Notes under the pieces: model-generated | The model's input: the letters and a program-made list of their open reading frames with translations, nothing else | The model's database searches: none | What the model was told of the DNA's origin: nothing | Made by a program: the position numbers and the translations under genes | Shown here: one piece after another, positions 5,105-36,037 of the stretch | Numbering within the stretch: position 1 is the stretch's first letter | Layout of the letters: the number at the start of each line of letters is the position of its first letter | From: an uncultured Candidatus Saccharibacteria bacterium | GTDB taxonomy: Bacteria > Patescibacteriota > Minisyncoccia > Phycocordibacterales > CAIZLB01 | DNA length: 64,000 nucleotides | Assembly (NCBI GenBank): GCA_964467385.1 | Contig: CAYXQC010000003.1 | Span: forward strand, 37,798 to 101,797 | Reading direction: 5' to 3'

Positions 5105-5193
5105 GGAGACGTGTCAGAGTGGTCGAATGTGCCTCTTTGCTAAAGAGGTGGGCCTTTAAAAGGGTCCCGAGGGTTCGAATCCCTCCGTCTCCG
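5105..5193 (+). tRNA. tRNA-Ser (anticodon GCT), class II with long variable arm
   Basis: Acceptor stem GGAGACG/CGTCTCC, anticodon stem CCTCT/AGAGG with loop TTGCTAA, long variable arm, T-arm GAGGG-TTCGAAT-CCCTC, discriminator G. Confidence 0.8.
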
Positions 5194-5221
5194 CCTTGAC
5201 AATTTAGTATCGGCGTGACCC
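5174..5221 (+). repeat. attL-like direct repeat (tRNA-Ser 3' end plus downstream block)
   Basis: Identical 21 bp, then a diverged 9-nt patch and a second 18-bp block (TTAGTATCGGCGTGACCC) matching 18415-18432 at 16/18. Confidence 0.6.
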
Positions 5222-5270
5222 TATTACTCGCGGGAGTAGGGCGACCCACGTACCTACTAGATTGCACAAA

Positions 5271-5301
5271 ACACCAAGAGAATTCTCTTGGTGTTTTGTT
5301 G
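5271..5301 (+). terminator. Rho-independent terminator-like hairpin downstream of tRNA-Ser
   Basis: ACACCAAGAGA-ATT-CTCTTGGTGT followed by TTTGTTG. Confidence 0.5.
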
Positions 5302-5317
5302 TTTATATAATTATGAA

Positions 5318-6004
5318 ATGAATTTTGGGAAAGCTATTAAAACCATCACTAAACTTCTCAAGAAAGAAAAGCCTAAAACATTTAGCAGTTCTTGGATTTC
5401 TACCCGTTCTCCTCTCGTATATCACTTCATCAGAGTTAACTTTAGAACCGAAAATAACCACATAGACTGGGACAAGGTCACAGCGGCCCTCGATCCTAAG
5501 TATGCAAAGTGCTGGATGCGTTACAAACGCAAGGTTGCCAAGCCTTACGAGAATCAGATAGAGGTGGATATCATACTTACGAAGTACAAAGACAAGCTCT
5601 ACACCTTTGTCGCTCTTGTTGATGATGGTGATAAGGAAACAAGGAATCAGCTGATCATCGCTCTTGTCCGAATCGCCCAGAAAGGAAATATTCTCGCTCA
5701 ATTAGAACTTACGAAGTGGCTGAAGTATGTCGTCGATGATTGGGTCGATAAATATTACCCGCTATTTAAATGGAAGGGTTACACCGATGACATTGAAGAC
5801 AAGATCCATGGCTGTATTCGCTGTTACAAATACACCGGATCATTTCTTGGCTACTTGTTTAAAACGCTCGAATATTCTGGTCGTGGCATACGACCCCTTC
5901 AAGCATGGTCGCTTGATAAGAATGTCGGTGATGACGGTGCAACGATGATTGATTTCGTTGCTCAGGATAGTGAAACGGGAGAGGTGAAGTTGTTCGGGAG
6001 GTAA
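5318..6004 (+). CDS. Hypothetical protein (island cargo). Start probably at the internal ATG at 5318 rather than 5288, which overlaps the terminator.
   Basis: ORF track; no recognised motifs. Confidence 0.35.
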   Translation: MNFGKAIKTITKLLKKEKPKTFSSSWISTRSPLVYHFIRVNFRTENNHIDWDKVTAALDPKYAKCWMRYKRKVAKPYENQIEVDIILTKYKDKLYTFVALVDDGDKETRNQLIIALVRIAQKGNILAQLELTKWLKYVVDDWVDKYYPLFKWKGYTDDIEDKIHGCIRCYKYTGSFLGYLFKTLEYSGRGIRPLQAWSLDKNVGDDGATMIDFVAQDSETGEVKLFGR

Positions 6005-6023
6005 TTATTGATACTCGCTCTGT

Positions 6024-6866
6024 CTAAATTATTCTCCCGTCAATTTCGTGGAATAGATTACTGACCATGATAAGGCGACCGAGCGCATCGTGGTGCGGAA
6101 GTTGATCTTCGTCGCCGTGGCTAAGATTGTTTCTCCACCAGTGCATAATACCCATGGTGGTGAGCTTGAAGCCGAGTTGCTTATTGATCTCCTGCGGTGT
6201 TGATAGAGCGTTGAACTTTATTTTCGGGTTCTGTTCACTGAAAACAGCCGCCATCAAATCAGGTCCTTGCTTGTCATGAGTGCTTGTAAGGTCTTGGACC
6301 GTCTTCTCGAACCTTTCAAGAGCTTTCCTCACTGACTCGTTGATATGACCTTCGATGAACATCTTTTTGCAGTCAGGAAGAAGTGAGGGATGAAGAACGT
6401 ATGCATCCAAGATTTTCTGAATCGCTATCGGAGGCGGAACTGTCTTCGGTCTTTCCTTTGGAAGATTCATTGCCACAATTTCTGATTCAAGATCAATGTT
6501 GAGAGCCTTAAGTCGCGCTGAGAGTCCAAGAGCTTCAGCTTCCAATACGGGATCGCCTTTCTCGTGTCGCTTTTCTATCGCCTTCGGTAGCATCTCTCGC
6601 ACGAGGATTTTTATAGTTCTCGGCTTCTGGCAGTAAAGATTTCGCAGGAACTCGTAGAAAGATTCCTTTTTGTTGGCCGCCTTGGCGGGAAGATATTTCG
6701 ACAGACCCCTTTCTTTAGCAATGGTCGTCAAAGAAAAGGAGCTTCGGAATCCCGAAAGAGCAATGAGCTTCCCGAGCTGTTCCGCGAGTGCGCGGATTGC
6801 CTGAGTCTGCGGTGCTGTGACAGTTACTCTTTTCTTCGCAATCTTTTTCTTGGTTTTCTTTTTCAT
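6024..6866 (-). CDS. Hypothetical protein with a basic N-terminus and a C-terminal HEPN-like Rx4H motif. Possible Abi/toxin-like RNase domain.
   Basis: N-terminal MKKKTKKKIAKKR; C-terminal WRNNLSHGD fits the Rx4-6H HEPN signature; 4-nt gap to the upstream Zn-ribbon gene. Confidence 0.35.
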   Translation of the reverse strand: MKKKTKKKIAKKRVTVTAPQTQAIRALAEQLGKLIALSGFRSSFSLTTIAKERGLSKYLPAKAANKKESFYEFLRNLYCQKPRTIKILVREMLPKAIEKRHEKGDPVLEAEALGLSARLKALNIDLESEIVAMNLPKERPKTVPPPIAIQKILDAYVLHPSLLPDCKKMFIEGHINESVRKALERFEKTVQDLTSTHDKQGPDLMAAVFSEQNPKIKFNALSTPQEINKQLGFKLTTMGIMHWWRNNLSHGDEDQLPHHDALGRLIMVSNLFHEIDGRII

Positions 6867-6869
6867 AAA

Positions 6870-7400
6870 TTATTTGGTCGTGTGGACATGGAATCCGCAG
6901 GCTCGGCAGATTCCGTTTATGTTGGCATCTCCGTTTACGTGGAATTCAAAGTTTTCCTTACCGCAAACAGAGCAAACAACTCGACCGCCACTGCGTTTCG
7001 TGGCATCAATCGTATCCAGTATGTCTCTCACGTTCAGAACGTATTTGTTTACCTGTTCACGGTCGTTCAGGTATCCCTGCACCCAGAGATTCGTTGTGAT
7101 TCTTCCTGCAGATGTTTCCTTGTAGTGAATCTTTCCCTCGTTCAGAAGTTTCTCCCAGTACTGCCGTGTCTTGCCATATTCTCTAGCCACATCGCCAGAA
7201 GACATGAGTGAGGCGTTATGGGGAATATATCCCTGATTTTCCATATTTTCTACGCAGGCTCGGATGCCTTCAGCGAGCGCACTCTCTTTTTCCTCCTTGG
7301 AAAATTCGCCAGTCAAATCAACACCGAGGCTCAAAGTGCCACCACTGCTTGTGTTGGCGTGCCAATAGAATTTTCGTTTGTCGTCTTTGGTTGCAGACAT
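6870..7400 (-). CDS. Hypothetical protein with C-terminal CxxC...CxxC zinc-ribbon
   Basis: CSVCGKENFEFHVNGDANINGICRACGFHVHTTK at the C-terminus; co-transcribed orientation with 6024-6866. Confidence 0.4.
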   Translation of the reverse strand: MSATKDDKRKFYWHANTSSGGTLSLGVDLTGEFSKEEKESALAEGIRACVENMENQGYIPHNASLMSSGDVAREYGKTRQYWEKLLNEGKIHYKETSAGRITTNLWVQGYLNDREQVNKYVLNVRDILDTIDATKRSGGRVVCSVCGKENFEFHVNGDANINGICRACGFHVHTTK

Positions 7401-7538
7401 GGCATAAGTATATGCTTGTTGGTTTCTAAATGCAACCAGTTATCTAATACACACGATGTATCAGATAGTATTAGTTTGTATCAGATTAATACGGCTATAA
7501 GGTATGTAGCCGATTACGGCGGATTACAGCCGAAAGGC

Positions 7539-8888
7539 TTATTCCTTCACCAATGTCAGCGTTTTATCCTTGTATATAATTCTCGATCGCAGATTGGCCA
7601 ACAGCTCCCGCTTCTCACTCGTCATGCCTTCCTTGAGGATGTACTTGGCGTAGTTTCGGATATCGGTATCCTTGTCGGTCTTTATCTTCTCCGTTGCTCC
7701 AAGCACAGATCTTTGGAATATATTGTATCGATTTATCTCCTCCTCAAGCTTCTGCCTCATGCCAAGCTCGTTGATGTTCACCTTGTCGAGAATTTTCAGA
7801 AGTTCAGTAATCAGTTCTTCTTCACGAATATATTTGTTCTTGCAGTTTCGGTCCCTAGCTCGTGAGCATGAGTAGTAGATGTAGCGGTTGGCACCTCCGT
7901 CCTTTAGTTGCTTCCATTTCTCCTCAGCCGATATGCCTGATTGGCAGTATCCGCATGTGAAGAGTTTGGTGAAGGCGAACTCCTTCGTTTCTCGCACGAT
8001 CTGGTCGCGCTTCAACTGTGCTTTCGTTTTCTCGAACAGTTCTTGAGTGATCAAGGGCTGATGTTTTCCCTGATACCAGTTGCCGCTTTCCCTTGGTCTT
8101 TCAAATATTCCGTAGTAGAAGGGATTCTCTAGGATTCGATACACACCACTCAGGGTCAGAGGTCTGTTTCCACGTGTATGGAAATTCAGCTCGAACCTCA
8201 TCCAGTTGTATACCTTTCTTCCAGACCATTGCTCATATGCAACTTTCTCGAACATCTTCTTGATGATTGGCGCTCTCTGCGGATCCACAAGCACCTGACC
8301 TTTCTTGTCCATATGCTTTTGATTGAGATATCCAAGCGGTGCCGTTCCGACCCATAGTCCCATCTCGCATCGGGTTCTTAGTCCTCGCTTCACGTTGATG
8401 CCTCGATTGTCATTCTCCAATTTTGCTTGGCTACACAGAATCATCAGCATGAACTTGTCGTTCGGGCTGTTGGTGAATCTTTGGCCGTAGGTGCGGATGT
8501 CCTGCAGATAATTTCCGTCCATAAGATCGATCACTTTTCCGAGATCGCCTGCGTTTCTTGAAATACGGTCTGGTGCCCACGTCAGGATGCCGTTAAACTT
8601 TCCTTGCTTGATCTCATCCACGATCTCATTGAAGACGGGGCGCTGCCCAGTCTCCTTAGCCGAGTGCGATTCTCGCTTCATGGTCACGATCTCCAATCCT
8701 TCTCTTTCTGCCAGTTGGAGCATCTCATTGATCTGGCTATCAATGCTCAAAACCTGCCGTTCCTCCGATTCCGTCGACTTTCTTGCGTAAAGGCAGTATT
8801 TCACCTTTACGGGGCTTGCTACTTTGGCCGCAGTCCCTAATGGCTCTGGTCCTTGTATTTTTGTCATACAACACAAGGAATGACGCAA
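7539..8888 (-). CDS. Large serine recombinase (resolvase/invertase catalytic domain + recombinase domain + zinc-ribbon). True start may be an internal Met.
   Basis: N-terminal YARKSTESEE (the catalytic Ser within the Y-x-R-x-S-T motif), an approximately 450-aa multi-domain length, and C-terminal cysteine pairs CGYC...SCSRARDRNC. Confidence 0.8.
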   Translation of the reverse strand: MRHSLCCMTKIQGPEPLGTAAKVASPVKVKYCLYARKSTESEERQVLSIDSQINEMLQLAEREGLEIVTMKRESHSAKETGQRPVFNEIVDEIKQGKFNGILTWAPDRISRNAGDLGKVIDLMDGNYLQDIRTYGQRFTNSPNDKFMLMILCSQAKLENDNRGINVKRGLRTRCEMGLWVGTAPLGYLNQKHMDKKGQVLVDPQRAPIIKKMFEKVAYEQWSGRKVYNWMRFELNFHTRGNRPLTLSGVYRILENPFYYGIFERPRESGNWYQGKHQPLITQELFEKTKAQLKRDQIVRETKEFAFTKLFTCGYCQSGISAEEKWKQLKDGGANRYIYYSCSRARDRNCKNKYIREEELITELLKILDKVNINELGMRQKLEEEINRYNIFQRSVLGATEKIKTDKDTDIRNYAKYILKEGMTSEKRELLANLRSRIIYKDKTLTLVKE

Positions 8889-8959
8889 CTCGCCCCAAGA
8901 GTCCAGAGCGTCCCGAGTACCTCGAAGTTGGTAACTTTTGCCTGTGGAAAACCCAATAG

Positions 8960-9225
8960 GTGGTTAAGGAAGTTAACCAAAATCGGTAAATTTCGTTAAC
9001 CAGAACTGGTTAACTTTGTTAACACACAAAAGAAAGAGAAATATAGAGAAACTTAGTATTAGGTACAACCTGTGGAAAAACTAGTCTAGTAGGTAGACTA
9101 GTCTAAAATTCAGACTACTTTTGGTCTATTTAGTAGACCGCAAGTAGTCTACGAAGTAGACACACAAAATCTAGGAAACAAAGGGAAACCTAGTATTAGG
9201 GATCGGGTGTGGACAAAGGGTCAAA
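8960..9225. promoter_or_regulatory. Palindrome/repeat cluster upstream of the recombinase gene. Candidate operator or recombination site.
   Basis: - Four GTTAAC-containing palindromes, including the 20-bp GTTAACCAGAACTGGTTAAC at 8995-9014.
- A 23-bp palindrome CTAGTCTAGTAGGTAGACTAGTC around 9081-9105.
- Further GTAGAC/GTCTAC half-sites to 9172.
- About 37-bp imperfect direct repeats (ACYTAGTATTAGG...TGTGGA.AAA) at 9049-9087 and 9187-9223 bracketing them. Confidence 0.4.
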
Positions 9226-9531
9226 AGCCACGACCTCTTTCCTTAATTTCTCAAAATCTCTGAAAACCCTGTTGTATATCCTTATGACTTTTCCTTTGCG
9301 CTTCTTGGTATCGCCATTCTCAAGAAAATCGACGAGGTCATCGTCGATGAAGGAAGCGAGAGAAATGTATGAGGCGACCAATAGCCTAATCCGCTCCCTG
9401 ATCGCCATCTTCAGATGCCTCTTTGACTCAGGCAACTTTGAGATACGGTTAAAAGGAGTAGAGCCTGTTGGCTCATGGTATTTGAAATGCTTTGAGGCTT
9501 CTATGATTGCTTCGATATCATCGTCTTTCAC
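9196..9531 (-). CDS. Hypothetical small protein (island)
   Basis: ORF track only; acidic/basic mixed, no motif recognised. Confidence 0.3.
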   Translation of the reverse strand: MKDDDIEAIIEASKHFKYHEPTGSTPFNRISKLPESKRHLKMAIRERIRLLVASYISLASFIDDDLVDFLENGDTKKRKGKVIRIYNRVFRDFEKLRKEVVAFDPLSTPDP

Positions 9532-9634
9532 CCCCTAACTGATGACGCTGTTCGCAAAGCCTGTCTAGACCCCTCAAAAGTCTCGAGGTTGGTAACCGAC
9601 TACACAAATTCCGATATGTAAGTTATGGTACTAA

Positions 9635-10633
9635 ATGCCTCTAAAAATGCTTCACTTAAGGTCGTTTTTATGCTTTAATATAGCCATTATGGAATTAGTT
9701 CGACTATTCAAAAATCTTACTAAAAACGATGCTGCCATTGCAGGTGGCAAAGGAGCCTCTTTAGGTGAGATGTCCCAAGCAGGAATCCCGGTCCCTCCGG
9801 GATTTGTTGTATTGTCGGAATCCTTCGAGCAATTTCTTCGAGAAACTGATCTTATTCAGGAAATTGATGCAATTCTCGATAACTTAAGTCACAAGGAGAT
9901 TCATCTAGTGGAAGCAGCATCAGAAAAAATCCGCGCACTTATTCTTTCCAAAGAGATGCCGAAAGATATTGCAACTGAAATAAGTAAATCTTCCAAAGAA
10001 CTTGGTTCAGAATTTGTAGCCGTACGATCGTCGGCCACTGCAGAGGATGGCCAAGATCACTCATGGGCAGGTCAACTCGAGTCTTATTTGAACGTAAAAG
10101 AAAATGATGTACTTAATAAAGTTAAGCACTGTTGGGCTTCGCTCTTTACCCCACGTGCAATCTTTTATCGTTTTGAAAAAGAACTTCACACAACAAAGAT
10201 TTCTGTGGCGGTTGTGGTGCAAAAAATGGTTGATTCAGAAATTTCTGGAATTGCATTCTCGGTTCATCCTGTAACTGAAGACAAGAACCAACTTATTATT
10301 GAAGCAGGATATGGATTGGGAGAAGCAATAGTGTCGGGATCGATTACCCCCGATAGTTATGTGGTTGAAAAAGAACCTCGGAAAATTCTCGATATCAATA
10401 TAGCAACACAAACCGAGGCACTCTATAAAAATACGGCGGGAGGAAATACATGGAAAAACATCCATGAACCAAAGGCAAGCTCTCAGGTATTAAAGGAGGT
10501 TCAAATTCTTGAGCTTGCTGATATAATTTTAAATATCGAGAAACATTACGGATTCCCCTGTGACATCGAGTGGGCGTTTGAAAGCGGAAAGTTTTATATT
10601 GTGCAAAGCAGACCCATTACTACATTAACTTAA
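9635..10633 (+). CDS. PEP-synthase / pyruvate-phosphate-dikinase N-terminal ATP-binding (PPDK_N) domain protein. Forms the N-terminal part of a rifampin-phosphotransferase-like enzyme.
   Basis: AIAGGKGASLGEMSQAGIPVPPGFVV and VAVRSSATAEDG motifs are typical of the PPDK_N nucleotide-binding domain. The ORF ends at an in-frame TAA three codons before the next ORF. Confidence 0.7.
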   Translation: MPLKMLHLRSFLCFNIAIMELVRLFKNLTKNDAAIAGGKGASLGEMSQAGIPVPPGFVVLSESFEQFLRETDLIQEIDAILDNLSHKEIHLVEAASEKIRALILSKEMPKDIATEISKSSKELGSEFVAVRSSATAEDGQDHSWAGQLESYLNVKENDVLNKVKHCWASLFTPRAIFYRFEKELHTTKISVAVVVQKMVDSEISGIAFSVHPVTEDKNQLIIEAGYGLGEAIVSGSITPDSYVVEKEPRKILDINIATQTEALYKNTAGGNTWKNIHEPKASSQVLKEVQILELADIILNIEKHYGFPCDIEWAFESGKFYIVQSRPITTLT

Positions 10634-10642
10634 ATCAAATTT

Positions 10643-12181
10643 ATGAATACAAACATCGAACAATTATTACAAAAATATACATTAACTCCCGATTTACTCA
10701 CTGATCCATTGATGAGTCTTGATATGGCTAAACTTGGGGACGACATCACTTCTTTTAAAGAAGAAGGTCTTTCCCAAGGATTTATTCGTCGTCGCATCGT
10801 GCTTTTTATGGATGGCTATCGATATTCGCTTCGTGCAGCAGAAAAGAGATGGGGTATTGATTTTGGATTTTATGAAACTGGAAAAGAACCAGTGAAGAAA
10901 GTATATTTTTCAGGAAAATTTAACGATAATGCAGCCGTGGTTTGGTTACAGAAGATGAACGAAGATAAAGACTTTGGAAATAATCTCGTTGAAGAACTCA
11001 AGACAATAATTGAAATGGAGAAATACTTGGCCGCTTCTGTCTCACAAACAGAACTGTCTAAGGAACAAATTAAAAAACACTTGGAGAATCATCTTTCGTG
11101 GTGGATTCAATTTTTTGAATTTGGATTTCTGTGGTTTTGTGCAGAAAATATTCAACAAGACACAAACGCAAAAATAGAAAAGATCTGGAAAGATACACCA
11201 GAATCGCTTAAGGAATTTCTTGAGGGTGTTTACAGACCAATGGACTTACCTGTATCAAGTGTAGAACAGCGAGATATTCTTGATATCAGCCAATTACAAG
11301 GAGAGGAACTTGAAAAAGCGCTCGACGCCCATTGGAAGAAGTACAAGCACCTATCTCTCCATAATATTGATGATGAGCCTTTTGATAAGGACTACTATGT
11401 AAGTCGAATTAAATCTCTACAAAAAGAAGGAGAATATGCAAAACAAAAAGACTTATTAACCCATGCTGATGCAGAAATTGGTGAAGCGACAAGCCTTCTC
11501 AAGGGTGCGGATATTCCAGAGGAACTAAAAAATAGAATCGAGTTTGTTCGCTGGTTCATGTTTCTTCGAACTGAATCGGTCGACAATATGATGCTAGTGA
11601 ATTCCTCATACAGACATGTATTCGATTCTCTATCAAAGTTATTTGATTTACCGATAGAGGCAGTACTCAATATGACATACAAGGAAATATTTGAGAGTCT
11701 TGAGGCTGGTAAACTTACTCTTTCTAAAGAAGTTATACTGGATAGATTAGAAAATGGTTATGCTTACTTTATTGGATATCGAACTGAAGCATTGCTTACT
11801 GGAGATGATAGACAAAAACTTATTGATATCCTACATCCTGCAACAAACGAAGAAATTATTAAGGAAATAAAAGGACAGATTGCATACAAAGGTAAGATTC
11901 AAGCGATAGCACGAGTCATTCTTGACCGAAAAAATGCTTCCGAGCTACAAGAAGGTGAAATTCTTGTGACCGCCATGACATCTCCAGACTTCGTGCCAGC
12001 CATGAAGATTTCAGCGGGAATCATTACCAATGAAGGAGGAGTACTGTGTCATGCCGCTATCATGTCTCGCGAACTACGAAAGCCTTGTGTTATAGGTACT
12101 AAGACGGCTACCGATATAATAAAGACTGGGGATTTGGTTGAATTAGATGGTGATACTGGAATAATTAAAATTCTAAGCTAG
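10643..12181 (+). CDS. PEP-utilising-enzyme mobile (swivel His) domain protein. C-terminal part of the same RPH-like phosphotransferase.
   Basis: C-terminal GGVLCHAAIMSRELRKPCVIGT is the PEP-utilizers phosphohistidine domain signature, at the extreme C-terminus as in rifampin phosphotransferases. Same reading frame as 9635-10633. Confidence 0.7.
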   Translation: MNTNIEQLLQKYTLTPDLLTDPLMSLDMAKLGDDITSFKEEGLSQGFIRRRIVLFMDGYRYSLRAAEKRWGIDFGFYETGKEPVKKVYFSGKFNDNAAVVWLQKMNEDKDFGNNLVEELKTIIEMEKYLAASVSQTELSKEQIKKHLENHLSWWIQFFEFGFLWFCAENIQQDTNAKIEKIWKDTPESLKEFLEGVYRPMDLPVSSVEQRDILDISQLQGEELEKALDAHWKKYKHLSLHNIDDEPFDKDYYVSRIKSLQKEGEYAKQKDLLTHADAEIGEATSLLKGADIPEELKNRIEFVRWFMFLRTESVDNMMLVNSSYRHVFDSLSKLFDLPIEAVLNMTYKEIFESLEAGKLTLSKEVILDRLENGYAYFIGYRTEALLTGDDRQKLIDILHPATNEEIIKEIKGQIAYKGKIQAIARVILDRKNASELQEGEILVTAMTSPDFVPAMKISAGIITNEGGVLCHAAIMSRELRKPCVIGTKTATDIIKTGDLVELDGDTGIIKILS

Positions 12182-12183
12182 AT

Positions 12184-13026
12184 ATGAAAGAGTCTTTTCC
12201 AAACAATTCCGACGCTATAATCACCAGACATTCTATTCGAGGGGAAAACTCTGAATATGAAGGGCTGTCACCAGAAGGTATTGAGAAAGCAAAAGAAAGG
12301 GCAAAGGATTTCGTGGAAATTATTGAAAAATCTGAACCAGGTACGGTTATATTTTTTGGCGGTGGTTCAACAGAAGCTCGAACAACCTCCACTTTGGAAG
12401 TTTATGTGGATGAAACAAAAAGCTTGTTAAAAGAGAAAGAGGGTGTCTTGTTTTTCGATCAGGAATCAATATCAGAAAAAGCACAGCGTGGTCACCTGTC
12501 CGCAGCAGAAGAGCTTAAAAAAGAAGCAGATGATAATCCTGAGGCAAAAGTAGTTGTAGATCTACCGCTTGTTATTAAGGATTTTCTTAAAGACGAATGG
12601 TGGTATGAGGAAGATGGAACGGTTAAAGAGCCGTGGCAATCTTTATTAGATAAACATGGGAAAGATTACTCATCCATAGTTCGAGACTGGTTTGAGACTC
12701 AGGGAATGTATGATGGTGAGCAAAAGGTTCCTAAACCTATTGAAGTTGCTGAAAGCTATCTAAATGGAATTAAACGATTACAAGGTTTTGTTAGAAAGTT
12801 TTCAGGAGATAGGAACGTTAAAGTTGTAGTTGTCGGGCATAGCATTCAGATGGATGCTTTACTTACTTATTTGGCAAATGATGGGGTTGTAGATTTAGAA
12901 GGATTTGAAAATATCGGAGACAAAGTTGTAGATACAACTGAAATGTCTGTTATTGAACCTGATGAAGATGGAGGCATTCATCTTTCTTATAGGGGTAAAG
13001 AGTTTATTTTTGGAGAAAATCAATAA
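12184..13026 (+). CDS. Histidine phosphatase superfamily (phosphoglycerate-mutase-like) protein
   Basis: N-terminal ITRHSIRGEN (RHG-type catalytic motif) and VVVGHS later; start 2 nt after the preceding stop. Confidence 0.55.
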   Translation: MKESFPNNSDAIITRHSIRGENSEYEGLSPEGIEKAKERAKDFVEIIEKSEPGTVIFFGGGSTEARTTSTLEVYVDETKSLLKEKEGVLFFDQESISEKAQRGHLSAAEELKKEADDNPEAKVVVDLPLVIKDFLKDEWWYEEDGTVKEPWQSLLDKHGKDYSSIVRDWFETQGMYDGEQKVPKPIEVAESYLNGIKRLQGFVRKFSGDRNVKVVVVGHSIQMDALLTYLANDGVVDLEGFENIGDKVVDTTEMSVIEPDEDGGIHLSYRGKEFIFGENQ

Positions 13027-13031
13027 ATAAT

Positions 13032-15128
13032 CTAAATCCCAATATATGGAAATTGGGGTAAGTCATCTTCCTCAAAATCTTCCTGCTGTGCTGGTCTCTG
13101 AATAATTCTCTTGTCTTTTGCAATAGTGAGTACAAGCGCATCGGGAATAGACGAGTCGATACCTTCTTCAGTAAGTTCATCTCGATCAATCATTTTTCTC
13201 TTGCCATTCGTATCGGCATAAACCATGTACAGAAGATCATCGAAGACATGTCTCCCTACAAGCTTTCCAATCCTTAACCATCCTGTCAGTTTTGAATATG
13301 CCCTCGCCCAATTGTCGGCAAACAGGTTGCCATCAAACTGTGGTTGCTCATTCATAGTGATTCCGTACCGTTGTCGATTCCCATATTTGTTGATGTTGAA
13401 ATGACCAACTGCGAGATGTCTCAATAGATTGCACAATTCCTGCCCTCGATCTGCTTTGTCGATAAAAATGTTCTCGTCCGATATCGGCACGTCATGTATC
13501 TTTGCGAGTTCGATAACTTTTAAGACGACTGTCGTCACATCCTGCATCGGCTCATGATACAGAACCTCAGCCGCATTCTCAGCTCTAAGCACGATAGTTG
13601 AGTAAGTCCTGTTTTTGTCTGCCAACACCACTCCCAGTCTTTTGTCTCCGAAATACGAAACCCTTTCCTGATAGCTGTCATTAAGAAGTCTTTCATCAAA
13701 GAGTGCATGATACCCCTTTGGTATATTCGATTCCTGATCCATCATGCTCCATACGAGGATGCAGAATGCATCTGAAAGGTCATCGTGCTTTTCCGTGCCA
13801 AAGCCCACGAGCTGTTCGATCAGCTTCTCAGCGCCATATCGAGGGAAGAGCACTGTTCCTGATTGAATGTGGTGTGAGATGAGTGACAGTCTAGCTCGCT
13901 TATCCGATCCTTGAGTCTTGTATTCCTTTGCGGGAAAGTTTTCCGATTTCAGATGGTCGATGATCGACTTCTGGTATCCCGCGTTCTCGATCCATACGTG
14001 TGCGTTTCCTAAAGTCTTTGACAGCGACTTAATCTTCTCAATCGTCTTCGGGAAATCCATTCGCTCGTTCACAGGATTCGGCAACACATAAATCTTCAAT
14101 GCCTTCTTTCTGCCGTATATCTTTCCTGAAACCATCGCTGTATAGTCCGCATTGTCCTTCTCGCTGATTGCGGGATCAATGCCGGTAGCGGTGAACCGAC
14201 ACGCATCAGCAGGCAGTGAATCGTAATATCGTATCCATTCAGGACGAATTACTTGATCATCATCTGCAATAATCTGGAGCATGTATTCTCTCTGCCATGC
14301 TTGAAGGCTCGGTACTGATTTTCTCAAAGTTTCTACTTCAGCATCCGTTCGGTACTTGTCCTTCCATAAAGGCTGATTATTCTCATCAAGGAATGGATAC
14401 GCCCTTGCAACGCCATCCATTCGACCTTCGAGAATGGCTTTCTTCAATCTCATGATGATCGAATCGTTATGAAGCTTCGTGCCGATCACAATTAATCTCG
14501 TGTCCTTGTCTCCAAGAGGAATGATGTCTCCCATAAGCCAGTTGAACATCTTGTCTCGACTCTCTTGGGTTTTGACGATATCCAAATCCTCAAGGTCGTC
14601 AGCAATTATCAAATCTGGCCTATGCGCCCCGTGCTTGATACCTCGAATCGAGTTATCGATTGAAGCTACTGTCACTCTCGCTCCGTATTTCGGCAACACG
14701 ATTGATACCGCACGCCACTCATCATTCGGCTCCTCGAATGGTCCGAGGTCTAATCTAAGTAATCGGTTGTGCTCAAGCTCCAGTTTGATGTTTGCAAGAT
14801 ACTGCCGTGCTTGACTTTCGGTCTTGGCGATAATTAAAACAAATTTTCTCTGCTGCATTCCGAGGATAGACCAGATCGCATAGGAAGTCCCCATGATCGT
14901 GGTCTTTCCTGATCCTCGGAATGCTTCGATAACCATGGTCTTATGAGACGCTTCGGTGAGTTCAAACAATTCCTTATGAAATTGCGCCGTCTTGTATTTA
15001 ACATAGTGGGAAAAGTAGATGTGGAAGAACCAGTGATGACAGGCTCTTGTAGTCGCACGCCTCACTCGTTGATTCTTAACTATCTCATCAATCTTTTCTG
15101 CCGATACTTCGGTGTCGTGGTTATGCAT
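13032..15128 (-). CDS. Phage terminase large subunit-like protein (ATPase + nuclease)
   Basis: Walker A EAFRGSGKTT after an N-terminal extension of about 60 aa; Walker B-like LIIADDLED; approximately 700-aa length; immediately preceded by a small HTH protein with overlapping stop/start. Confidence 0.6.
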   Translation of the reverse strand: MHNHDTEVSAEKIDEIVKNQRVRRATTRACHHWFFHIYFSHYVKYKTAQFHKELFELTEASHKTMVIEAFRGSGKTTIMGTSYAIWSILGMQQRKFVLIIAKTESQARQYLANIKLELEHNRLLRLDLGPFEEPNDEWRAVSIVLPKYGARVTVASIDNSIRGIKHGAHRPDLIIADDLEDLDIVKTQESRDKMFNWLMGDIIPLGDKDTRLIVIGTKLHNDSIIMRLKKAILEGRMDGVARAYPFLDENNQPLWKDKYRTDAEVETLRKSVPSLQAWQREYMLQIIADDDQVIRPEWIRYYDSLPADACRFTATGIDPAISEKDNADYTAMVSGKIYGRKKALKIYVLPNPVNERMDFPKTIEKIKSLSKTLGNAHVWIENAGYQKSIIDHLKSENFPAKEYKTQGSDKRARLSLISHHIQSGTVLFPRYGAEKLIEQLVGFGTEKHDDLSDAFCILVWSMMDQESNIPKGYHALFDERLLNDSYQERVSYFGDKRLGVVLADKNRTYSTIVLRAENAAEVLYHEPMQDVTTVVLKVIELAKIHDVPISDENIFIDKADRGQELCNLLRHLAVGHFNINKYGNRQRYGITMNEQPQFDGNLFADNWARAYSKLTGWLRIGKLVGRHVFDDLLYMVYADTNGKRKMIDRDELTEEGIDSSIPDALVLTIAKDKRIIQRPAQQEDFEEDDLPQFPYIGI

Positions 15129-15558
15129 GGTCGATTGTAGTTAATCCGAGAGCCTCACGCACCATCTTTTCTTCTTGAGGAGTGAGAGCTTCTTCCTCTG
15201 CGGTCTTGGTGGTAAGTTCGACCTTGTTTCTATACTTAGGATGATGCTGTCTGAGCCACAATTGGATTGCAGGAAAATTCTTTTCCTTGATGAGTGTAAT
15301 GAGCTGACTTTCGGAAAGATCATTGATCATTTCCTCGCCGTCCTGCATGGCCTCGTCAGTCGCTTTCTTGAATTTCGCATCATCACGTCTCCATCGGTAG
15401 TAGGTGCTACGACCAATATTGCTTCTCTCACATGCAATCTGCACGATCGGTATCTTTCGGAGCTGTTCCAAGACGACTTTCTGTTCAACTTTGTTTCTTT
15501 TTAGGGTTGATTCTCTTTTCATAATTTCATTGCTTTTAAGTTTGTTAATTTTTCCCAT
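15121..15558 (-). CDS. Small HTH DNA-binding protein. Probable terminase small subunit.
   Basis: 145 aa; helix-turn-helix IACERSNIGRSTYYRWRR; 8-nt overlap with the terminase large subunit start. Confidence 0.4.
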   Translation of the reverse strand: MGKINKLKSNEIMKRESTLKRNKVEQKVVLEQLRKIPIVQIACERSNIGRSTYYRWRRDDAKFKKATDEAMQDGEEMINDLSESQLITLIKEKNFPAIQLWLRQHHPKYRNKVELTTKTAEEEALTPQEEKMVREALGLTTIDHA

Positions 15559-16349
15559 CTAATAATTGCGGTCTGTACGTACTCGGGATCAAGCTCTATG
15601 GCGATACATGCTCGCTTGGTCTGCTCGCACGCCAATAGACATGTTCCAGAGCCAAGAAAGGCATCGTAAACGACATTGCCAATGCGAGTGCTATTGAGGA
15701 TGAGATGTCGAATAAGTGGCACAGGCTTAGTCGTAGGGTGGAATGGACTCTTGTTCGGCTTCGGATGAACGATGACACTCTTGTCTTTTGATTTTAAGAA
15801 TTCATGCGTTCCATACCATCCGTATGCGATGAGTTCATGCATCGGTGCATAATCCATTCTTCCAACCACTGCTTGAGTTTTCACCCACACAATCAATTGA
15901 GCGAATTTACAGCCGATTGATTTCATTCCGTCACGCAAGGCGAATATCATCTTGTCGGAGTTGAAGATGTACAGAGCATTCTTCCGTTCAAGATGTGGAG
16001 TTACCGCACTAAGCCAGTCTTCAGTGAACTTCTTGTATTCCTCGTCAGACTGAAGGTGATCATTCTCAATCTTCTTGCCTTTGAGCAATGCTTTAAAGTT
16101 CTGCTTGCTCTCCGCAACCGCAACTCCGTAGGGCGGATCGGAAATGATTGCCTTAATTTTTCTTTTACTAACCACCCTTGAGACGAACTCCTTGTCTCTC
16201 GAATCACCGCAAGCAATCGTGTGTTCGCCAAGTTGAAAGATGTCTCCCGCCTTAATTGAGTTTTGTGACTTTTTCATTTGGAGAGAGTTGTCTAAAGCGG
16301 TTGATAATGAGTTGGCAGAATATCGGTTCCATTTCGCAGAGATACGCAA
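15519..16349 (-). CDS. DNA N6-adenine/N4-cytosine methyltransferase (N6_N4_Mtase family). Real start probably the internal Met near 16277.
   Basis: IISDPPYG catalytic motif and C-terminal FLGSGT SAM-binding motif. Confidence 0.75.
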   Translation of the reverse strand: MRISAKWNRYSANSLSTALDNSLQMKKSQNSIKAGDIFQLGEHTIACGDSRDKEFVSRVVSKRKIKAIISDPPYGVAVAESKQNFKALLKGKKIENDHLQSDEEYKKFTEDWLSAVTPHLERKNALYIFNSDKMIFALRDGMKSIGCKFAQLIVWVKTQAVVGRMDYAPMHELIAYGWYGTHEFLKSKDKSVIVHPKPNKSPFHPTTKPVPLIRHLILNSTRIGNVVYDAFLGSGTCLLACEQTKRACIAIELDPEYVQTAIIRWEKLTNLKAMKL

Positions 16350-17538
16350 TGCGTTTCAACTGTTCGCACGCTGACAGGATGCTTCCTGATCCGCCAGTAA
16401 TATCGAGGACGATATCACCAGGGCGACTACACCTACGCAATGCTTTCTCATGCAAGGTAGGAGGCTTCTGTGTCGGATGTGCATATTCCTGTGACGGCAG
16501 TCGCTTCACGAGCCAGATATTGAGCATGTCTAGAATATCCTCGACTAATCTGTTGCCAGTCGTGGTTTCTTTGTTCAATACTTCATTGAGATTTTTAATC
16601 TTGTCAGACAAGTAAGGTTTTCCTCTCGTGCCGTATACGCAATATTCGGTGACCTTGTTGAATGCCACCTGCGGTGTCGGGGAAGCATTGTCTTTAACCC
16701 ACAAGCAGAGTCGCTTTGAATCGATACCAAGCTCCTTGTAGAGTTCTTGGAATAGCCAAACGTATCGCTCATCGCACCAGAAGAAAACGTGAGCGTCTGG
16801 CTTGGTCACGCTCAATGCGTTTTGGATAAGTGTCTTTGCGAATGTTTTATACTCGTCATCCGTTTTGCTGTCGTCAGTTGTTCCACCATATTTAGCTTTA
16901 TTGCCGACACCTTTGTCATACGAGAGACCGATGTTGTATGGAGGATCGGTATTGATCATGTCGGCAAGATTTTCATTCATGAGAAACTTGATCATGTTTT
17001 GATCTGTAGAATTGCCGCAGAGAAGTCTGTGGCGACCGAGAGCAAAGTAGTCGCCGAATTTTATATCGGTTTCCTTTATTTTCTCCAACTCTTTTTCCTC
17101 ATCGAAGTTGTCGTCACTCACTTCGAGATTGTCATCAAAGATATTAGTGAGATCGGTTGAATCAAAGCCTGCCATGAGCAGGGTGTCGATGTCGAAGTCG
17201 CTCGCCAGTATCTCCCAGTCCCAAGAGCCGCCTGAACGATTGCTTGTTAATAAATATTGTTTGAACTCAGAAGGGGTGAGCTTGCGATTCGGTGTTCTCA
17301 CCTCGATTTCTTCTTCACCTCGACCTAGCAGTTGCAGCGCTTTGATGCGCTGATGGCCTGCGACGATCTTTCCGTCAGTGTTGATCGCAGGAAGCTCTGC
17401 AAGATTGAACTTCTTCAAGCTTTCCTTTAAGTCTTCCATCTGCTTGTCCGTGATTTTCCTCGGATTCTTCTCGTAGGGCAGAAGATCGTTTACCCGGCGC
17501 TTTTCGGTACGCCATACCAGTGGTGTTAATTTGGACAT
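16252..17538 (-). CDS. ParB-like nuclease domain fused to DNA methyltransferase (phage-type ParB-MTase)
   Basis: N-terminal ParB/Srx-like region (KITDKQMEDLKESLKKFNLAELPAINTDGKIVAGHQRIKAL), INTDPPYN catalytic motif, C-terminal DITGGSGS SAM motif. Confidence 0.75.
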   Translation of the reverse strand: MSKLTPLVWRTEKRRVNDLLPYEKNPRKITDKQMEDLKESLKKFNLAELPAINTDGKIVAGHQRIKALQLLGRGEEEIEVRTPNRKLTPSEFKQYLLTSNRSGGSWDWEILASDFDIDTLLMAGFDSTDLTNIFDDNLEVSDDNFDEEKELEKIKETDIKFGDYFALGRHRLLCGNSTDQNMIKFLMNENLADMINTDPPYNIGLSYDKGVGNKAKYGGTTDDSKTDDEYKTFAKTLIQNALSVTKPDAHVFFWCDERYVWLFQELYKELGIDSKRLCLWVKDNASPTPQVAFNKVTEYCVYGTRGKPYLSDKIKNLNEVLNKETTTGNRLVEDILDMLNIWLVKRLPSQEYAHPTQKPPTLHEKALRRCSRPGDIVLDITGGSGSILSACEQLKRIAYLCEMEPIFCQLIINRFRQLSPNEKVTKLN

Positions 17539-17599
17539 ATATATTTACGGTTATTAATAATAGGCACAGTATGCGTTCCACAACTTGATCTAAATGTAG

Positions 17600-17775
17600 G
17601 AATTACTCTTGCTCCTCACTTAATCATGCGTGTGAAAAAGTGATTTTTGTGTTGCATTACTCTTCTGTCCTGAGACAATGGTAAATCCCAAAAAGTGACA
17701 AATCGTGGTGCATTACTTTTGCCATCCATAATGCTACTCGTGAAAAAATGCAAAAAGGTGTGCATTACTTTCTCT
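17600..17775. repeat. Periodic iteron-like repeats upstream of the ParB-MTase/terminase operon
   Basis: Four copies of ..TGCATTACTYTT / ATTACTCTT at 17603, 17656, 17712 and 17764 (spacing 52-56 bp). The three downstream copies at 17630-17664, 17690-17720 and 17739-17772 are preceded by AAAAAGTGA-type blocks. Confidence 0.45.
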
Positions 17776-18172
17776 ACCCAGAATCGTATGCTGGCCAACG
17801 TATCCGATTAGTGGGTATTGAAAATGCTACTGGATAAAAAACGTGTAAAATCGTGCGGAATCAATTTCACTTTCTTATCCTCTAAAAGCGTAGCGGACCC
17901 GAACCCTTCTGTCTGGGGGAATTACCTGGCAGAGAATGAATATGAAAATCAGTCCAGCAATCCTCTGAAAATATGCAAAATCAAAATGGCACACTGCTTT
18001 GGCACAGTGTGCTGTTCCAATACCTCTGAAATACCCTTATGTTGCTTGGCGAAAGATGTCGAAACCATCCTTACGGGGCTTGTTTGAAACACTGCCCCTG
18101 CGTGTGCCAAATTGTGCCAATTTGGGAAAGGGAGACCCCGACCCACGAACCCCAAATTGATCAGTCCAAATA

Positions 18173-18229
18173 TGCTAAAATACCCTTACAAGGTCTCACC
18201 CATGGGGTACTTAACCCACGATGCCCGCA
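18173..18229 (+). repeat. Copy A of a 57-nt duplicated block with an extended -10 promoter-like start
   Basis: TGCTAAAATACCCTTA ... GGTACTTAACCCACGATGCCCGCA; followed by hairpin ACCAGTTTTAACTGGT. Confidence 0.4.
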
Positions 18230-18384
18230 TTGACGATACGAACCAGTTTTAACTGGTGAGTGTCGGCAACTTTCTGATACAGTAGGAAGCGAAGCTTTTG
18301 GGGATTCGAAAAGGTTCTCCCATATTTTCGAGAATGAGCGTAGCGAGTTTGAGAAAATGGGAAACCTGTACTGAAGCTGTAAGC

Positions 18385-18432
18385 TTCGAATCCCTCCGTC
18401 TCCGCATTAAGAACTTGGTATCGGCATGACCC
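18385..18432 (+). repeat. attR-like direct repeat (displaced copy of the tRNA-Ser 3' end, no 5' half)
   Basis: TTCGAATCCCTCCGTCTCCGC identical to 5174-5194; no complementary T-stem or acceptor 5' strand upstream. Confidence 0.6.
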
Positions 18433-18438
18433 GAGTGC

Positions 18439-19080
18439 CTAAGAAACCTTCTTAAATACCAAATCACCCGAGATTCTATCTTCGGTGTTAGGTCGCTTCC
18501 AAAGAAATATATTTTGAGTAAATTCAGTAGGATTTTGAATTTCTGAGGCTGAGTGATTGTAAATATTGATTCCTCGCCCCTTCATCATCTCGATTATTCT
18601 TGGTTCAAATTGCTCTAGTGATACGAAAATACTTTGTCGTGCCACTCTCTCAAATTCCTTCGCTAATTTTTCCCAATCCTCAATAAAGTAAAGGGAACTG
18701 AGTGCGATGATGTGGTCTACAGATTTATCCCTGAAAGTTTCAATGACATCCTCGACAGCCCCGATATGTCCCTCAAAACCTCGCTTTTTTGCCTCCTCAA
18801 TCATTGCGGGCGAAATATCAATTCCTTCGTATGTAAATGAGTCACCTAAATATTTCTTGAGCTTTCCCGTACCACAACCAATATCGAGCAAAGTTCCCTC
18901 GGTTATTCCATATTTTTGATATGTTTCCAGTAGAATTCTTGGAATCTGATATTCAGCTTTTCCTTCAAAGGATTCGTCGTAGACTGATGCGGCCTCGTCA
19001 TAAAAAAGGGTCACATTCCTCCTCTGTGTTTCAAGTTCTGTTTTTTCTGGACTTGGCGGTATTTTTTCCATATCTATCAT
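18439..19080 (-). CDS. Class I SAM-dependent methyltransferase
   Basis: LDIGCGTGKL motif I and DISPAMIEEAKKRGF; 213 aa. Confidence 0.6.
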   Translation of the reverse strand: MIDMEKIPPSPEKTELETQRRNVTLFYDEAASVYDESFEGKAEYQIPRILLETYQKYGITEGTLLDIGCGTGKLKKYLGDSFTYEGIDISPAMIEEAKKRGFEGHIGAVEDVIETFRDKSVDHIIALSSLYFIEDWEKLAKEFERVARQSIFVSLEQFEPRIIEMMKGRGINIYNHSASEIQNPTEFTQNIFLWKRPNTEDRISGDLVFKKVS

Positions 19081-19142
19081 ATTATCGCTAATGGCAAGAT
19101 TAGACTAGTGACCCACATACCTAATTTCAGTCTCAAAAAACT

Positions 19143-19199
19143 TGCTAAAATATCCTTAGGGGGTTTCGCCACTCTGGTACCTAACCCACGATGCCCGCA
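19143..19199 (+). repeat. Copy B of the same 57-nt block
   Basis: TGCTAAAATATCCTTA ... GGTACCTAACCCACGATGCCCGCA; same spacing as A with a 17-nt variable middle; followed by perfect hairpin GGACAGAATTTATTCTGTCC (19212-19231). Confidence 0.4.
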
Positions 19200-19309
19200 A
19201 CGATTCGCGAGGACAGAATTTATTCTGTCCGATGCGGAGCGTATCTTGGACATGATAGGTTGATGAGAAAGACGGAGCGGATGAGGCGAGCATCCTGTGC
19301 AGCAAGCCT

Positions 19310-32143: not shown

Positions 32144-32284
32144 ATGGTGGTCACGGATATTTTCTTGCTACCCGCTCTAAAATTCCTCGACCCTAGCTCG
32201 TCTATTTTTCCTACTGGAAAAATATGACTCCGCCTCGCCAAAAGTAAACAAAAACCCAGACTGCTCTGGGTTTTTGAATCTTTG

Positions 32285-32358
32285 TGCGCGTGCATGGACT
32301 CGAACCATGGACCGCCGAGGTATAAGCTCGGTGCTCTAACCAACTGAGCTACACGCGC
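32285..32358 (-). tRNA. tRNA-Ile with anticodon UAU (TAT)
   Basis: Reverse complement GCGCGTG-T-AGCTCAGTTGGTTAGAGC-A-CCGAG-CTTATAC-CTCGG-CGGTC-CATGG-TTCGAGT-CCATG-CACGCGC-A folds as a canonical cloverleaf; positions 34-36 of the loop are TAT. Confidence 0.7.
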
Positions 32359-36026: not shown

Positions 36027-36037
36027 GTAATACAAAA

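Follow-up and report, generated by a model that had tools for sequence, protein, structure and literature searches.

What is the block of DNA that occurs twice, on either side of a methyltransferase gene, in a 64,000-nucleotide stretch (the window) of contig CAYXQC010000003.1 from an uncultured Candidatus Saccharibacteria bacterium? A preliminary description, made from the sequence alone, had offered three readings: paralogous small-RNA genes or leaders, duplicated promoters, or the ends of a mini-cassette. We favour a process of site-specific integration, in which the two blocks are the right ends (RE) of two tandem integrative units that lie behind a tRNA-Ser(GCU) gene and were probably placed there by a large serine recombinase (LSR), and we put the probability of this reading at about 0.72. 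Among the three earlier readings the mini-cassette comes closest to the truth. The second block (RE2) does close a cassette carrying the methyltransferase gene, but the first (RE1) is the end of a preceding 13-kb element, and the left end of the cassette is a different sequence, LE2, which starts at 18404.

Two well-preserved copies of the block had been described, at 18173-18229 and 19143-19199, and a repeat search of the window recovers them as a direct repeat pair (18168-18229 and 19138-19199) of 62 nt with 79% identity and a spacing of 970 nt. Each copy contains the box TGCTAAAAT, then a variable segment of 17 nt, equal in length in both, and then the identical 24-mer GGTACYTAACCCACGATGCCCGCA, which has exactly two matches in the 64 kb at a tolerance of 3 mismatches and none in 100 shuffles. 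The box, the spacer and the identical end were thus correctly described; the length of 57 nt was not, as pairwise alignment carries the similarity further left, to about 18139 and 19109, and takes in a GACCCAC..ACC motif, so that the unit measures about 95 nt. Delimited in this way, the copies are co-oriented and share an identical end of 23-24 nt. The hairpins that had been counted as part of the block are both present (ACCAGTTTTAACTGGT at 18242-18257 and GGACAGAATTTATTCTGTCC at 19211-19230), but they flank the conserved unit. A transposon end with inverted repeats can be excluded, as no inverted copy of the 24-mer exists in the 64 kb at 3 or fewer mismatches.

The blocks belong to an array of three units behind the tRNA gene. 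Its parts are listed below; LE denotes a left end, ORF an open reading frame, and attB and attP the attachment sites of chromosome and element, the latter with half-sites P and P'.

5105-5195, plus strand: tRNA-Ser(GCU), found by ARAGORN and Rfam; its 3' end (..GGTTCGAATCCCTCCGTCT-CC-GC) is the putative target, the left arm of attB.
5191-5192: putative crossover dinucleotide CC in the tRNA-Ser gene.
5193-18228: 13-kb element, from LE1 to RE1, which encodes the LSR.
5193-5262, plus strand: LE1, left end of the 13-kb element (GCCTTGACAATTTAGTATCGGCGTGACCC...GGGCGACCCACGTACCTAC; profile match 5196-5262, E=1.9e-15).
7539-8888, minus strand: LSR, 449 aa, with Pfam domains Resolvase (PF00239), Recombinase (PF07508) and Zn_ribbon_recom (PF13408).
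18135-18228, plus strand: RE1, copy 1 (profile E=5e-23), with the GACCCAC motif at 18140-18154, TGCTAAAAT at 18173-18181 and the variable 17 nt.
18206-18228: putative P half-site of RE1, GGTACTTAACCCACGATGC-CC-GC, with CC at 18225-18226.
18229-18405, plus strand: unit x, ORF-less, 176 nt, containing the hairpin 18242-18257.
18404-18445, plus strand: LE2, left end of the methyltransferase cassette (GCATTAAGAACTTGGTATCGGCATGACCCGAGTGCCTAAG; profile match 18407-18445, E=2e-9, model positions 2-40).
18439-19080, minus strand: class I methyltransferase dependent on S-adenosylmethionine, 213 aa (Pfam Methyltransf_11, Methyltransf_25 and others).
19107-19198, plus strand: RE2, copy 2 and last in the array (profile E=1.1e-23), with GACCCAC at 19110-19124 and TGCTAAAAT at 19143-19151.
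19176-19198: putative P half-site of RE2, with CC at 19195-19196.
19199-19300, plus strand: host flank, presumed to be the original tRNA-Ser trailer and the right arm of attB, with the hairpin 19211-19230.

LE1 adjoins the tRNA 3' end directly and holds the putative P' half-site and two GACCC..CCTA motifs, while LE2 is truncated after the first such motif.

Copies of the block outside the window, for which a search had been proposed, were found in 27 other genome or metagenome loci. A scan of one genome per species gave 2 of these, L001 (in a metagenome-assembled genome, MAG, of Saccharibacteria) and L002 (in an unclassified MAG, on a contig of 649 kb), and a metagenome scan with the pattern GGTACNNAACCCACRATGCCCGC gave 25. 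The pattern is the last 23 nt of the RE, and their conservation in the metagenome set therefore arises by construction; the roughly 70 nt upstream of the pattern are conserved in all 25 loci (consensus GAnCCCGACCCACATACCTCA..TGCTAAAATACCCTTAC..CTCTGGTACTGAACCCACGATGCCCGC). On the other side, similarity breaks off abruptly after GCCCGC in at least 30 copies. The breakpoint is equally sharp between long homologous regions: L002 is 82% identical to 13036-17823 of the window and 87% identical to 17885-18228, ending exactly after GCCCGC, and homologues of 13036-18228 in L001, L002, L023 and L027 lose similarity at exactly this position. Two scans of IMG/VR viral contigs did not find the conserved end.

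The recurring neighbour of the RE is a tRNA-Ser gene (GCU, UGA or CGA). About 20 of the 25 metagenome loci have it upstream and co-oriented, and in 16 the distance is 0.3-1.9 kb. Units follow one layout, in which the tRNA-Ser 3' end (..CTCC/GC(CA), the slash marking the joint) is followed by an LE of about 70 nt (consensus A[TC]TAAGAACTTAGTATCGGCATGACCCGAGTG..GGGCGACCCGATTACCTAA), by cargo and by an RE ending in ..GATGCCC/GC. In about 15 cassette loci the LE adjoins the tRNA 3' end at ..CC/GC, and an LE profile (nhmmer) places LEs at tRNA ends or RE ends, including both left ends in the window. What follows an RE is unrelated sequence, often with a terminator hairpin, or directly the next LE; the sequence after the last RE is presumably the tRNA's original trailer. 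Tandem arrays of REs on the same strand were found by nhmmer profile in L001 and L009 (three each) and in L016, L023 and the window (two each). RE2 belongs to the class seen in most metagenome loci. A 15-nt motif, GACCC[AG]N[AG]T[AG]CCT[AC]A, occurs in three direct copies per unit, two in the LE and one at the start of the RE (in the window at 5217-5231, 5241-5255, 18140-18154, 18427-18441 and 19110-19124), and could be a site for an accessory protein or a joint for cargo exchange.

The blocks had been described as bracketing an attR fragment together with the methyltransferase gene. The positions hold, but the fragment belongs to a separate unit between RE1 and LE2, unit x. Its last 21 nt (18385-18405) are identical to the tRNA-Ser 3' end at 5174-5194, and its predicted fold is a long branched hairpin (-41.9 kcal/mol, z = -3.2). 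Unit x is one of a class of ORF-less sequences of 130-180 nt, located directly after tRNA-Ser or after an RE, in which the 5' end mimics the 5' strand of the tRNA-Ser acceptor and the last 18-24 nt equal the 3' end of the host's tRNA-Ser; relatives lie at 907-1035 of L021, 2259-2436 of L012 and 12504-12612 of L026 (L008/L026). As four LEs in L044 are separated by tRNA-like right ends of a second type (type B, ..AGTTCGAATCGCTTTGTCTCCGC/LE; also in L029 and L046), unit x can be grouped with these, and it may be such an end, a tRNA pseudogene or a small RNA. The element boundary in the window thus precedes the tRNA fragment by about 180 nt, and a tRNA fragment should not be assumed to mark the end of a prophage. 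Since L012 and L021 show the order tRNA/x/LE-cargo-RE with no large element, the comparison suggests that an array was already present when the 13-kb element inserted at its tRNA-proximal joint. Positions 19258-19292, in the host flank, resemble the sequence downstream of tRNA-Ser in L012.

The link to a serine recombinase comes from the large elements. The LSR of the window is a full-length member of the serine-integrase family: it matches a PHROG integrase at 1.9e-60 and aligns to SprA/YokA of SPbeta over residues 34-394, including the YxRxS serine motif. It has more than 8000 homologues, the best 120 clusters of which are 81-100% identical, and their source annotations include Giovannonibacteria and Minisyncoccia. 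Six LSR lineages were compared (window/L029, L031-36, L037/38, L041/43, L044/45 and L046). In all six the LSR gene is LE-proximal, 1.4-3 kb from the LE and on the opposite strand, and in five a tRNA-Ser(GCU) is followed by an LE that starts exactly at ..CC/GC, while in L029 the LE adjoins a degenerate tRNA-like end instead. In L037 an RE 14 kb from the tRNA closes an element with the same module of genes, those for a ParB-methylase, a helix-turn-helix (HTH) protein, a terminase and an LSR. No other recombinase family was detected among the ORFs scanned in LSR-bearing elements. A gene of the excisionase family (HTH_17, 67-68 aa) is present in the L031-38 elements; in L031-36 it adjoins the LSR gene, and in L037/38 about 5 kb separate the two. 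In the window no recombination directionality factor was recognised, and a 111-aa ORF at 9196-9531 has no Pfam match.

LSRs are 84-85% identical between hosts whose tRNA-flanking PilM proteins are only 33-52% identical. SecY places the window host among bacteria of the Candidate Phyla Radiation (CPR) of the Paceibacteria type, its closest matches being annotated as Pacebacteria/Paceibacterota; SecY identity has dropped to 82% by the second match and to about 64% by rank 100. The LSR element is thus far more conserved than its hosts and therefore fits horizontal spread, which these identities indicate to have been, in all probability, recent and wide. In INPHARED neither the LSR nor the terminase has a close phage relative, the best identities being about 26-27%.

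From these observations we propose the following model. The RE would be made up of about 70 nt of accessory sequence and the P half of attP, and in a circular unit attP would be formed by RE joined to LE, with the form GGTACT-N9-ATGC CC GCAT-N9-AGTAYC. The LSR of the 13-kb element would recombine this site with the very 3' end of tRNA-Ser, at the common CCGC or beside it, and the tRNA would stay intact after insertion because the LE supplies G73 and the following bases. Repeated insertion would build the arrays, and the small LE-cargo-RE units that have no recombinase gene would be non-autonomous relatives, presumably moved in trans, or else fixed remnants. The model predicts the circle junctions ..GGTACTTAACCCACGATGCCC/GCCTTGACAATTTAGTATCGG for the 13-kb element and ..GGTACCTAACCCACGATGCCC/GCATTAAGAACTTGGTATCGG for the methyltransferase cassette, and the empty joints tRNA-Ser..CGTCTCC/GCATTGACGATACGAACC and ..CGTCTCC/GCAACGATTCGCGAGG.

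The sequences of the ends agree with this model in several respects. When attP is reconstructed from eight junctions, the best dyad centre falls on the CC of GC-CC-GC in five, with 9-12 of 20 positions matching; this CC sits just inside the homology breakpoints, within the CCGC that tRNA and RE have in common. The crossover dinucleotide of a serine integrase should be non-palindromic, as CC is. The symmetry is consistent with the model, not proof of it. A dyad centre at the AA of AAGAAC (+8) is incompatible with breakpoints after GCCCGC. Compared with the tRNA-Ser 3' end of its own locus, the RE half-site has 12.9 of 23 identities against 8.8 +/- 1.9 in shuffles, and only CCGC is contiguous. 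Judged by this alignment, the likeness would be the relation expected of attP and attB half-sites rather than a copied tRNA fragment. An exact copy of 15 or more nt of the tRNA 3' end, the classical mark of an attR, is absent from the RE of the window type (type A) and present in unit x, with 21 nt.

The RE also carries a box which may act as an outward-facing promoter, judging by its sequence pattern. In 28 copies the box TGnTAnAAT is conserved as T24 A26 (n = A20) A28 A23 T27, with the upstream G in 26 of 28, and the divergent L037 end has GCTATAAT. This is the pattern of a sigma-70 promoter of the extended -10 type; it is not specific proof of a promoter, because the adjoining CCTTA is equally conserved. 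A generic promoter scan did not call the box, as no -35 match is present. A transcript starting here would cross the junction and the next LE and enter the next cargo gene, the orientation of cargo being forward in 16 of 21 units. The earlier suggestion of duplicated promoters may therefore capture a sub-function, given the conservation of the promoter-like box, but leaves the block as a whole unexplained.

Several observations weigh against the integration model and account for the reserve in our estimate. The attP dyad is modest (p 0.02-0.6 for each junction), ties with the +8 centre in the consensus and has another centre in L009b and L037. RE copies found by the profile only (L001b, L009c, L016b, L023b and L037) keep GGTAC..AAC...CCGC and vary elsewhere, and in the last 23 nt they vary more than the copies found with the pattern. 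Type-B right ends have little symmetry and are exact copies of tRNA 3' ends, more like classical direct-repeat attachment sites. No -35 element is conserved, and the window methyltransferase gene is oriented against the direction of the putative RE promoter. For canonical serine integrases attL and attR are not targets, and array growth would therefore require a relaxed, hypothetical specificity of the LSR. No circular overlap, excision product or circular junction was found among the contigs fetched. An empty site was likewise not found: exact-protein look-ups of the flanking genes gave nothing or the source contig itself, and loci sharing the flanking PilM are too diverged or rearranged for the comparison. 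Finally, the loci with small cassettes are mostly short contigs, whose genomes may or may not carry an LSR.

The small units call for separate consideration, as their mobility is the part of the model with the strongest competitor. The methyltransferase cassette (18404-19198) consists of LE, RE and a single ORF, with no recombinase gene. Comparable units without a recombinase occur in other loci, where a census free of redundant loci counts 22 of them, all below 2.5 kb (297-1811 bp). Different loci carry unrelated cargo between LE and RE, even at a syntenic tRNA-Ser(UGA) site; it includes methyltransferases, a beta-lactamase-like protein, a histidine phosphatase, a shikimate-kinase-like protein, small membrane proteins and a serine hydrolase; L021 has an empty unit of LE and RE only.

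Such units might be fixed scars, left when full-size LSR elements integrated repeatedly and lost their interiors while the genes near the ends were kept. Full-size elements do have the same LE and RE, LE2 of the window is truncated, some RE copies are degenerate (L001b, L009c, L023b and one in L020), and ordinary serine integrases should not insert beside an existing attL or attR. We nevertheless consider scars rather unlikely. Most of the small units hold one ORF; in 16 the longest ORF points forward and in 5 it is reversed, and 1 unit has none. The methyltransferase gene of the window runs against the common orientation. The cargo stop codon (TAG) repeatedly overlaps the first bases of the RE (TAGACCCCGACCC), and LE and RE are near full length in most units. 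The cargo consists of host-type metabolic genes, unlike the end-proximal genes of the known full-size elements. Moreover, one and the same cassette stands between different neighbours in two genomes: a Zn-ribbon cassette in L001 and L009 is 81% identical over 547 nt, from the preceding RE through its own RE, and the sequences differ on both sides beyond this stretch.

It is also conceivable that the ends are real attachment sites served by a tyrosine integrase or another recombinase encoded elsewhere, with the LSR merely a frequent cargo. The 3' ends of tRNA genes are classical targets of tyrosine integrases, unit x and the type-B ends carry exact copies of 18-24 nt of them, the direct GACCC..CCTA repeats, three to a unit, have the appearance of arm-type sites, and the dyad symmetry is weak. 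We regard this explanation as improbable, since no tyrosine recombinase was found in any LSR-bearing unit, in the L014 island or in the other arrays scanned, while the LSR gene keeps its place near the LE in every lineage. Furthermore, the identity between type-A RE and tRNA, CCGC plus scattered matches, is too short for the overlap together with a direct repeat that is typical of a tyrosine integrase.

Much less survives of the proposal that the blocks are small-RNA genes or 5' leaders, that is, paralogous RNAs of about 90 nt starting after TGCTAAAAT and ending at the downstream hairpin. The extended -10 box is conserved, and a terminator-like hairpin follows the last RE at 10-40 nt in many loci, so that a short transcript is physically plausible. 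However, Rfam gave no match to the block, either at the gathering threshold or at E<=10. RNAalifold of 28 non-identical homologues, the covariation analysis that had been recommended, found only 3-6 invariant pairs on both strands and no covarying or compensatory change. The minimum free energies of both window copies on both strands are worse than those of dinucleotide shuffles (z +0.4 to +1.5). The hairpins are unrelated flanks, missing where an LE follows the RE, and conservation reaches 35 nt upstream of the -10 box and stops sharply at a breakpoint of the recombination type. A structured small RNA, leader or riboswitch is accordingly rejected, the small-RNA reading as a whole is very unlikely, and the RE should not be annotated as a small RNA.

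Several narrower candidates were rejected as well. ARAGORN calls no tRNA at either block, and threading by hand on either strand fails at the D, anticodon and T stems; the likeness of TGCTAAA to the anticodon loop of the GCU tRNA and that of CAGAGTGGT (minus strand) to the D-arm of tRNA-Ser did not extend into an alignment. A short peptide ORF through the block has an ATG only in the phage-end class of copies, and indels of 1, 5 and 6 nt between copies break every frame. A GGTG/CACC mini-hairpin in the variable segment is not kept across copies. With no Rfam match, no covariation, poor folding and frame-breaking indels, the block is evidently conserved as primary DNA sequence.

That RE and LE are vertically inherited regulatory or insulator sequences of the tRNA-Ser neighbourhood, with no relation to mobility, is hardly credible: the RE does lie consistently downstream of tRNA-Ser, but copy number and cargo vary between loci, the same ends flank LSR elements of 13-14 kb in hosts assigned to different CPR groups (the window host with its closest SecY matches in Pacebacteria/Paceibacterota, other hosts annotated as Giovannonibacteria and Saccharibacteria, and one LSR homologue annotated as Minisyncoccia), and LSR identity is far above that of host proteins.

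The large elements also share a gene content. Those of 13-14 kb have small-terminase-like, large-terminase-like and ParB-methylase genes (window 13032-17538; L029 1-4469; L037 5568-8768) and no capsid, portal or tail genes, a satellite-like set that is unusual in having its own large terminase. Their variable cargo is of a resistance or defence flavour. The corresponding features are as follows.

13032-15128, minus strand: terminase large subunit-like gene (Pfam, PHROGs).
15121-15558, minus strand: small-terminase/HTH-like gene (Pfam, PHROGs).
15519-16349 and 16252-17538, minus strand: two N6/N4 DNA methylase genes (Pfam, PHROGs).
17539-18134: non-coding right arm of the 13-kb element, with degenerate repeats, the perfect hairpin 17989-18012 and a weak RE-like copy.
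9635-13026: variable cargo of the window, split PPDK_N and PEP-utilizers ORFs (rifampin-phosphotransferase/PEP-synthase-like, PEP being phosphoenolpyruvate) and a histidine phosphatase.
L029, 4471-8664: variable cargo, APH kinase and acetyltransferase.
L041, 12829-14270: variable cargo, diversity-generating retroelement (bAvd and RVT).
L044, 11326-19182: variable cargo, restriction-modification, AAA_15 ATPase, Fic and AEP primase genes.

Proteins of the right-hand module (13032-17538) are 87-99% identical in L002, L023 and L027. The right arm is 86% identical in L001 and L002, with an indel of 62 nt. Here the earlier observations stand: 17540-18440 has no convincing ORF (the longest is at most 89 aa, and the largest, 17818-18087, is broken by the 62-nt indel relative to L002), the perfect hairpin is real and scores as a terminator-like site on the minus strand, and the degenerate CTGAAATACCCTTA / TGAAAAAATGCAAAA motif has 6 matches against 1.3 expected, along with two repeat families. 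About four degenerate direct repeats of some 52-56 nt (..GTGAAAAA.TG...GTGCATTACTTT..) at 17620-17860 have the look of iterons or of a packaging site; they lie near the genes for ParB-methylase and terminase and are conserved in L001 and L002. The weak RE-like copy lies near 18024-18070 (profile match at 12086-12039 of L028, the same contig as the window). In L023 (3879-9091) an array is followed by the PilM neighbourhood in a relative orientation opposite to that of the window, which may reflect a chromosomal inversion between tRNA-Ser-associated arrays.

Elsewhere in the window are a tRNA-Ile with the rare UAU anticodon, a tmRNA gene, a 492-aa beta-CASP RNase with a weak match, below cut-offs, to 'Cas14/type VII' and aCPSF1 models, and a 986-aa protein with a weak match to TraD-like coupling proteins that is possibly part of another mobile element (listed together: 32284-32358, 35586-36027, 46663-48141, 49820-52780).

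How does this system compare with known ones? Like integron cassettes, the units are mostly of one gene and co-oriented, with a conserved recombination boundary, a fixed platform site and diverse cargo. Unlike in integrons, neither the window units nor the other scanned arrays yielded a tyrosine recombinase of the IntI type, a tRNA 3' end rather than an attI beside intI serves as the platform, and each unit appears to carry an outward -10 box in place of a platform promoter Pc. Identity of the RE with an integron attC can be excluded, as it is not an imperfect palindrome and does not fold.

Cis-mobilisable elements (CIMEs) are deletion derivatives of integrative and conjugative elements such as ICESt1 and ICESt3, which use tyrosine integrases. 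They share with our units functional-looking attL and attR of an autonomous element, the lack of recombination genes and a tandem position next to that element (accretion); the units described here have no conjugation module and are far smaller and far more numerous. The staphylococcal cassette chromosome (SCC), including SCCmec and pseudo-SCC arrays, lies at rlmH (orfX) and uses the serine recombinases CcrAB or CcrC. Here too a serine recombinase acts at the 3' end of a conserved gene that is not inactivated, and composite tandem arrays with repeated attachment sequences include units that have the same sites and no recombinase. The SCC target is protein-coding, however, its elements measure 20-60 kb, its hosts are Firmicutes, and it has neither conserved long LE and RE modules nor single-gene cassettes.

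Of the systems described so far the closest are the Dehalococcoides islands at ssrA, with SCC arrays and tycheposons also near. These islands, with the serine recombinase DsiB/DsiA (McMurdie et al. 2011, PMC3146451), resemble our elements in an integrase gene of the LSR type beside attL on the reverse strand, in insertion at the 3' end of a stable-RNA gene with tandem islands downstream, and in units that have no integration module, there discussed as cis-mobilisable (PMC3146451). A comparison with SCC was drawn in the same study, and the term CIME is used there and in PMC5704250. The ssrA islands differ in their target, a tmRNA, and in boundaries that are all exact 20-bp direct repeats of it (PMC3146451), where our type-A end has about 13 of 23 matches to the tRNA and CCGC in common. 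The present hosts are CPR bacteria, units can be single-gene and as small as 0.3-1.8 kb, with a -10 box and with conserved ends that measure about 70 nt (LE) and 95 nt (RE), and there is one recombinase gene, with no DsiA/CcrA-like partner seen.

Tycheposons of Prochlorococcus likewise insert site-specifically at tRNA genes, including tRNA-Ser, carry cargo or resemble phage-inducible chromosomal islands (PICI) with terS, and form islands by repeated insertion (Hackl et al., bioRxiv 10.1101/2020.12.28.424599). Tyrosine recombinases serve 910 of 937, large serine recombinases a minority, and tycheposons differ from our units in having partial tRNA copies at their ends and replication modules (10.1101/2020.12.28.424599). 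The 13-kb element, too, has terminase but no capsid genes. For tycheposons, arrays in which single-gene units have conserved LE and RE have not been described.

In kind, therefore, the system is known: it consists of serine-recombinase integrative elements with non-autonomous tandem derivatives. What is unusual is the tRNA-Ser target, the long conserved ends and the integron-like one-gene units in CPR bacteria. A search of the literature on CPR bacteria, Saccharibacteria, tRNA-Ser, serine recombinases and cassettes, incomplete in its coverage, found no description of it.

CPR genomes are tiny and their gene exchange is poorly understood. A candidate route is now at hand, in which a single recombinase family, a single target at the last bases of tRNA-Ser and two searchable end sequences come together. 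With RE and LE profiles, flexible gene pools can be marked off in CPR MAGs, with cargo that includes antibiotic-modifying and restriction-modification or defence genes. The LSR, whose putative attP is RE::LE and whose attB-like site in tRNA-Ser is available universally, is a candidate for the serine-integrase toolbox. As a tentative extension, with somewhat less than an even chance of being right, we suggest that the LE-cargo-RE units form an LSR-based gene-cassette capture system of CPR/Patescibacteria, analogous to the integron, with the 3' end of tRNA-Ser as platform, RE::LE as cassette site and, in each cassette, an outward promoter serving the neighbour downstream. If so, one highly conserved LSR family (81-99% identical between distant CPR lineages) would shuffle single genes, including those of resistance and defence type, among reduced genomes, and the small units, if mobile, would represent a second, mechanistically independent route to integron-like arrays of single-gene cassettes.

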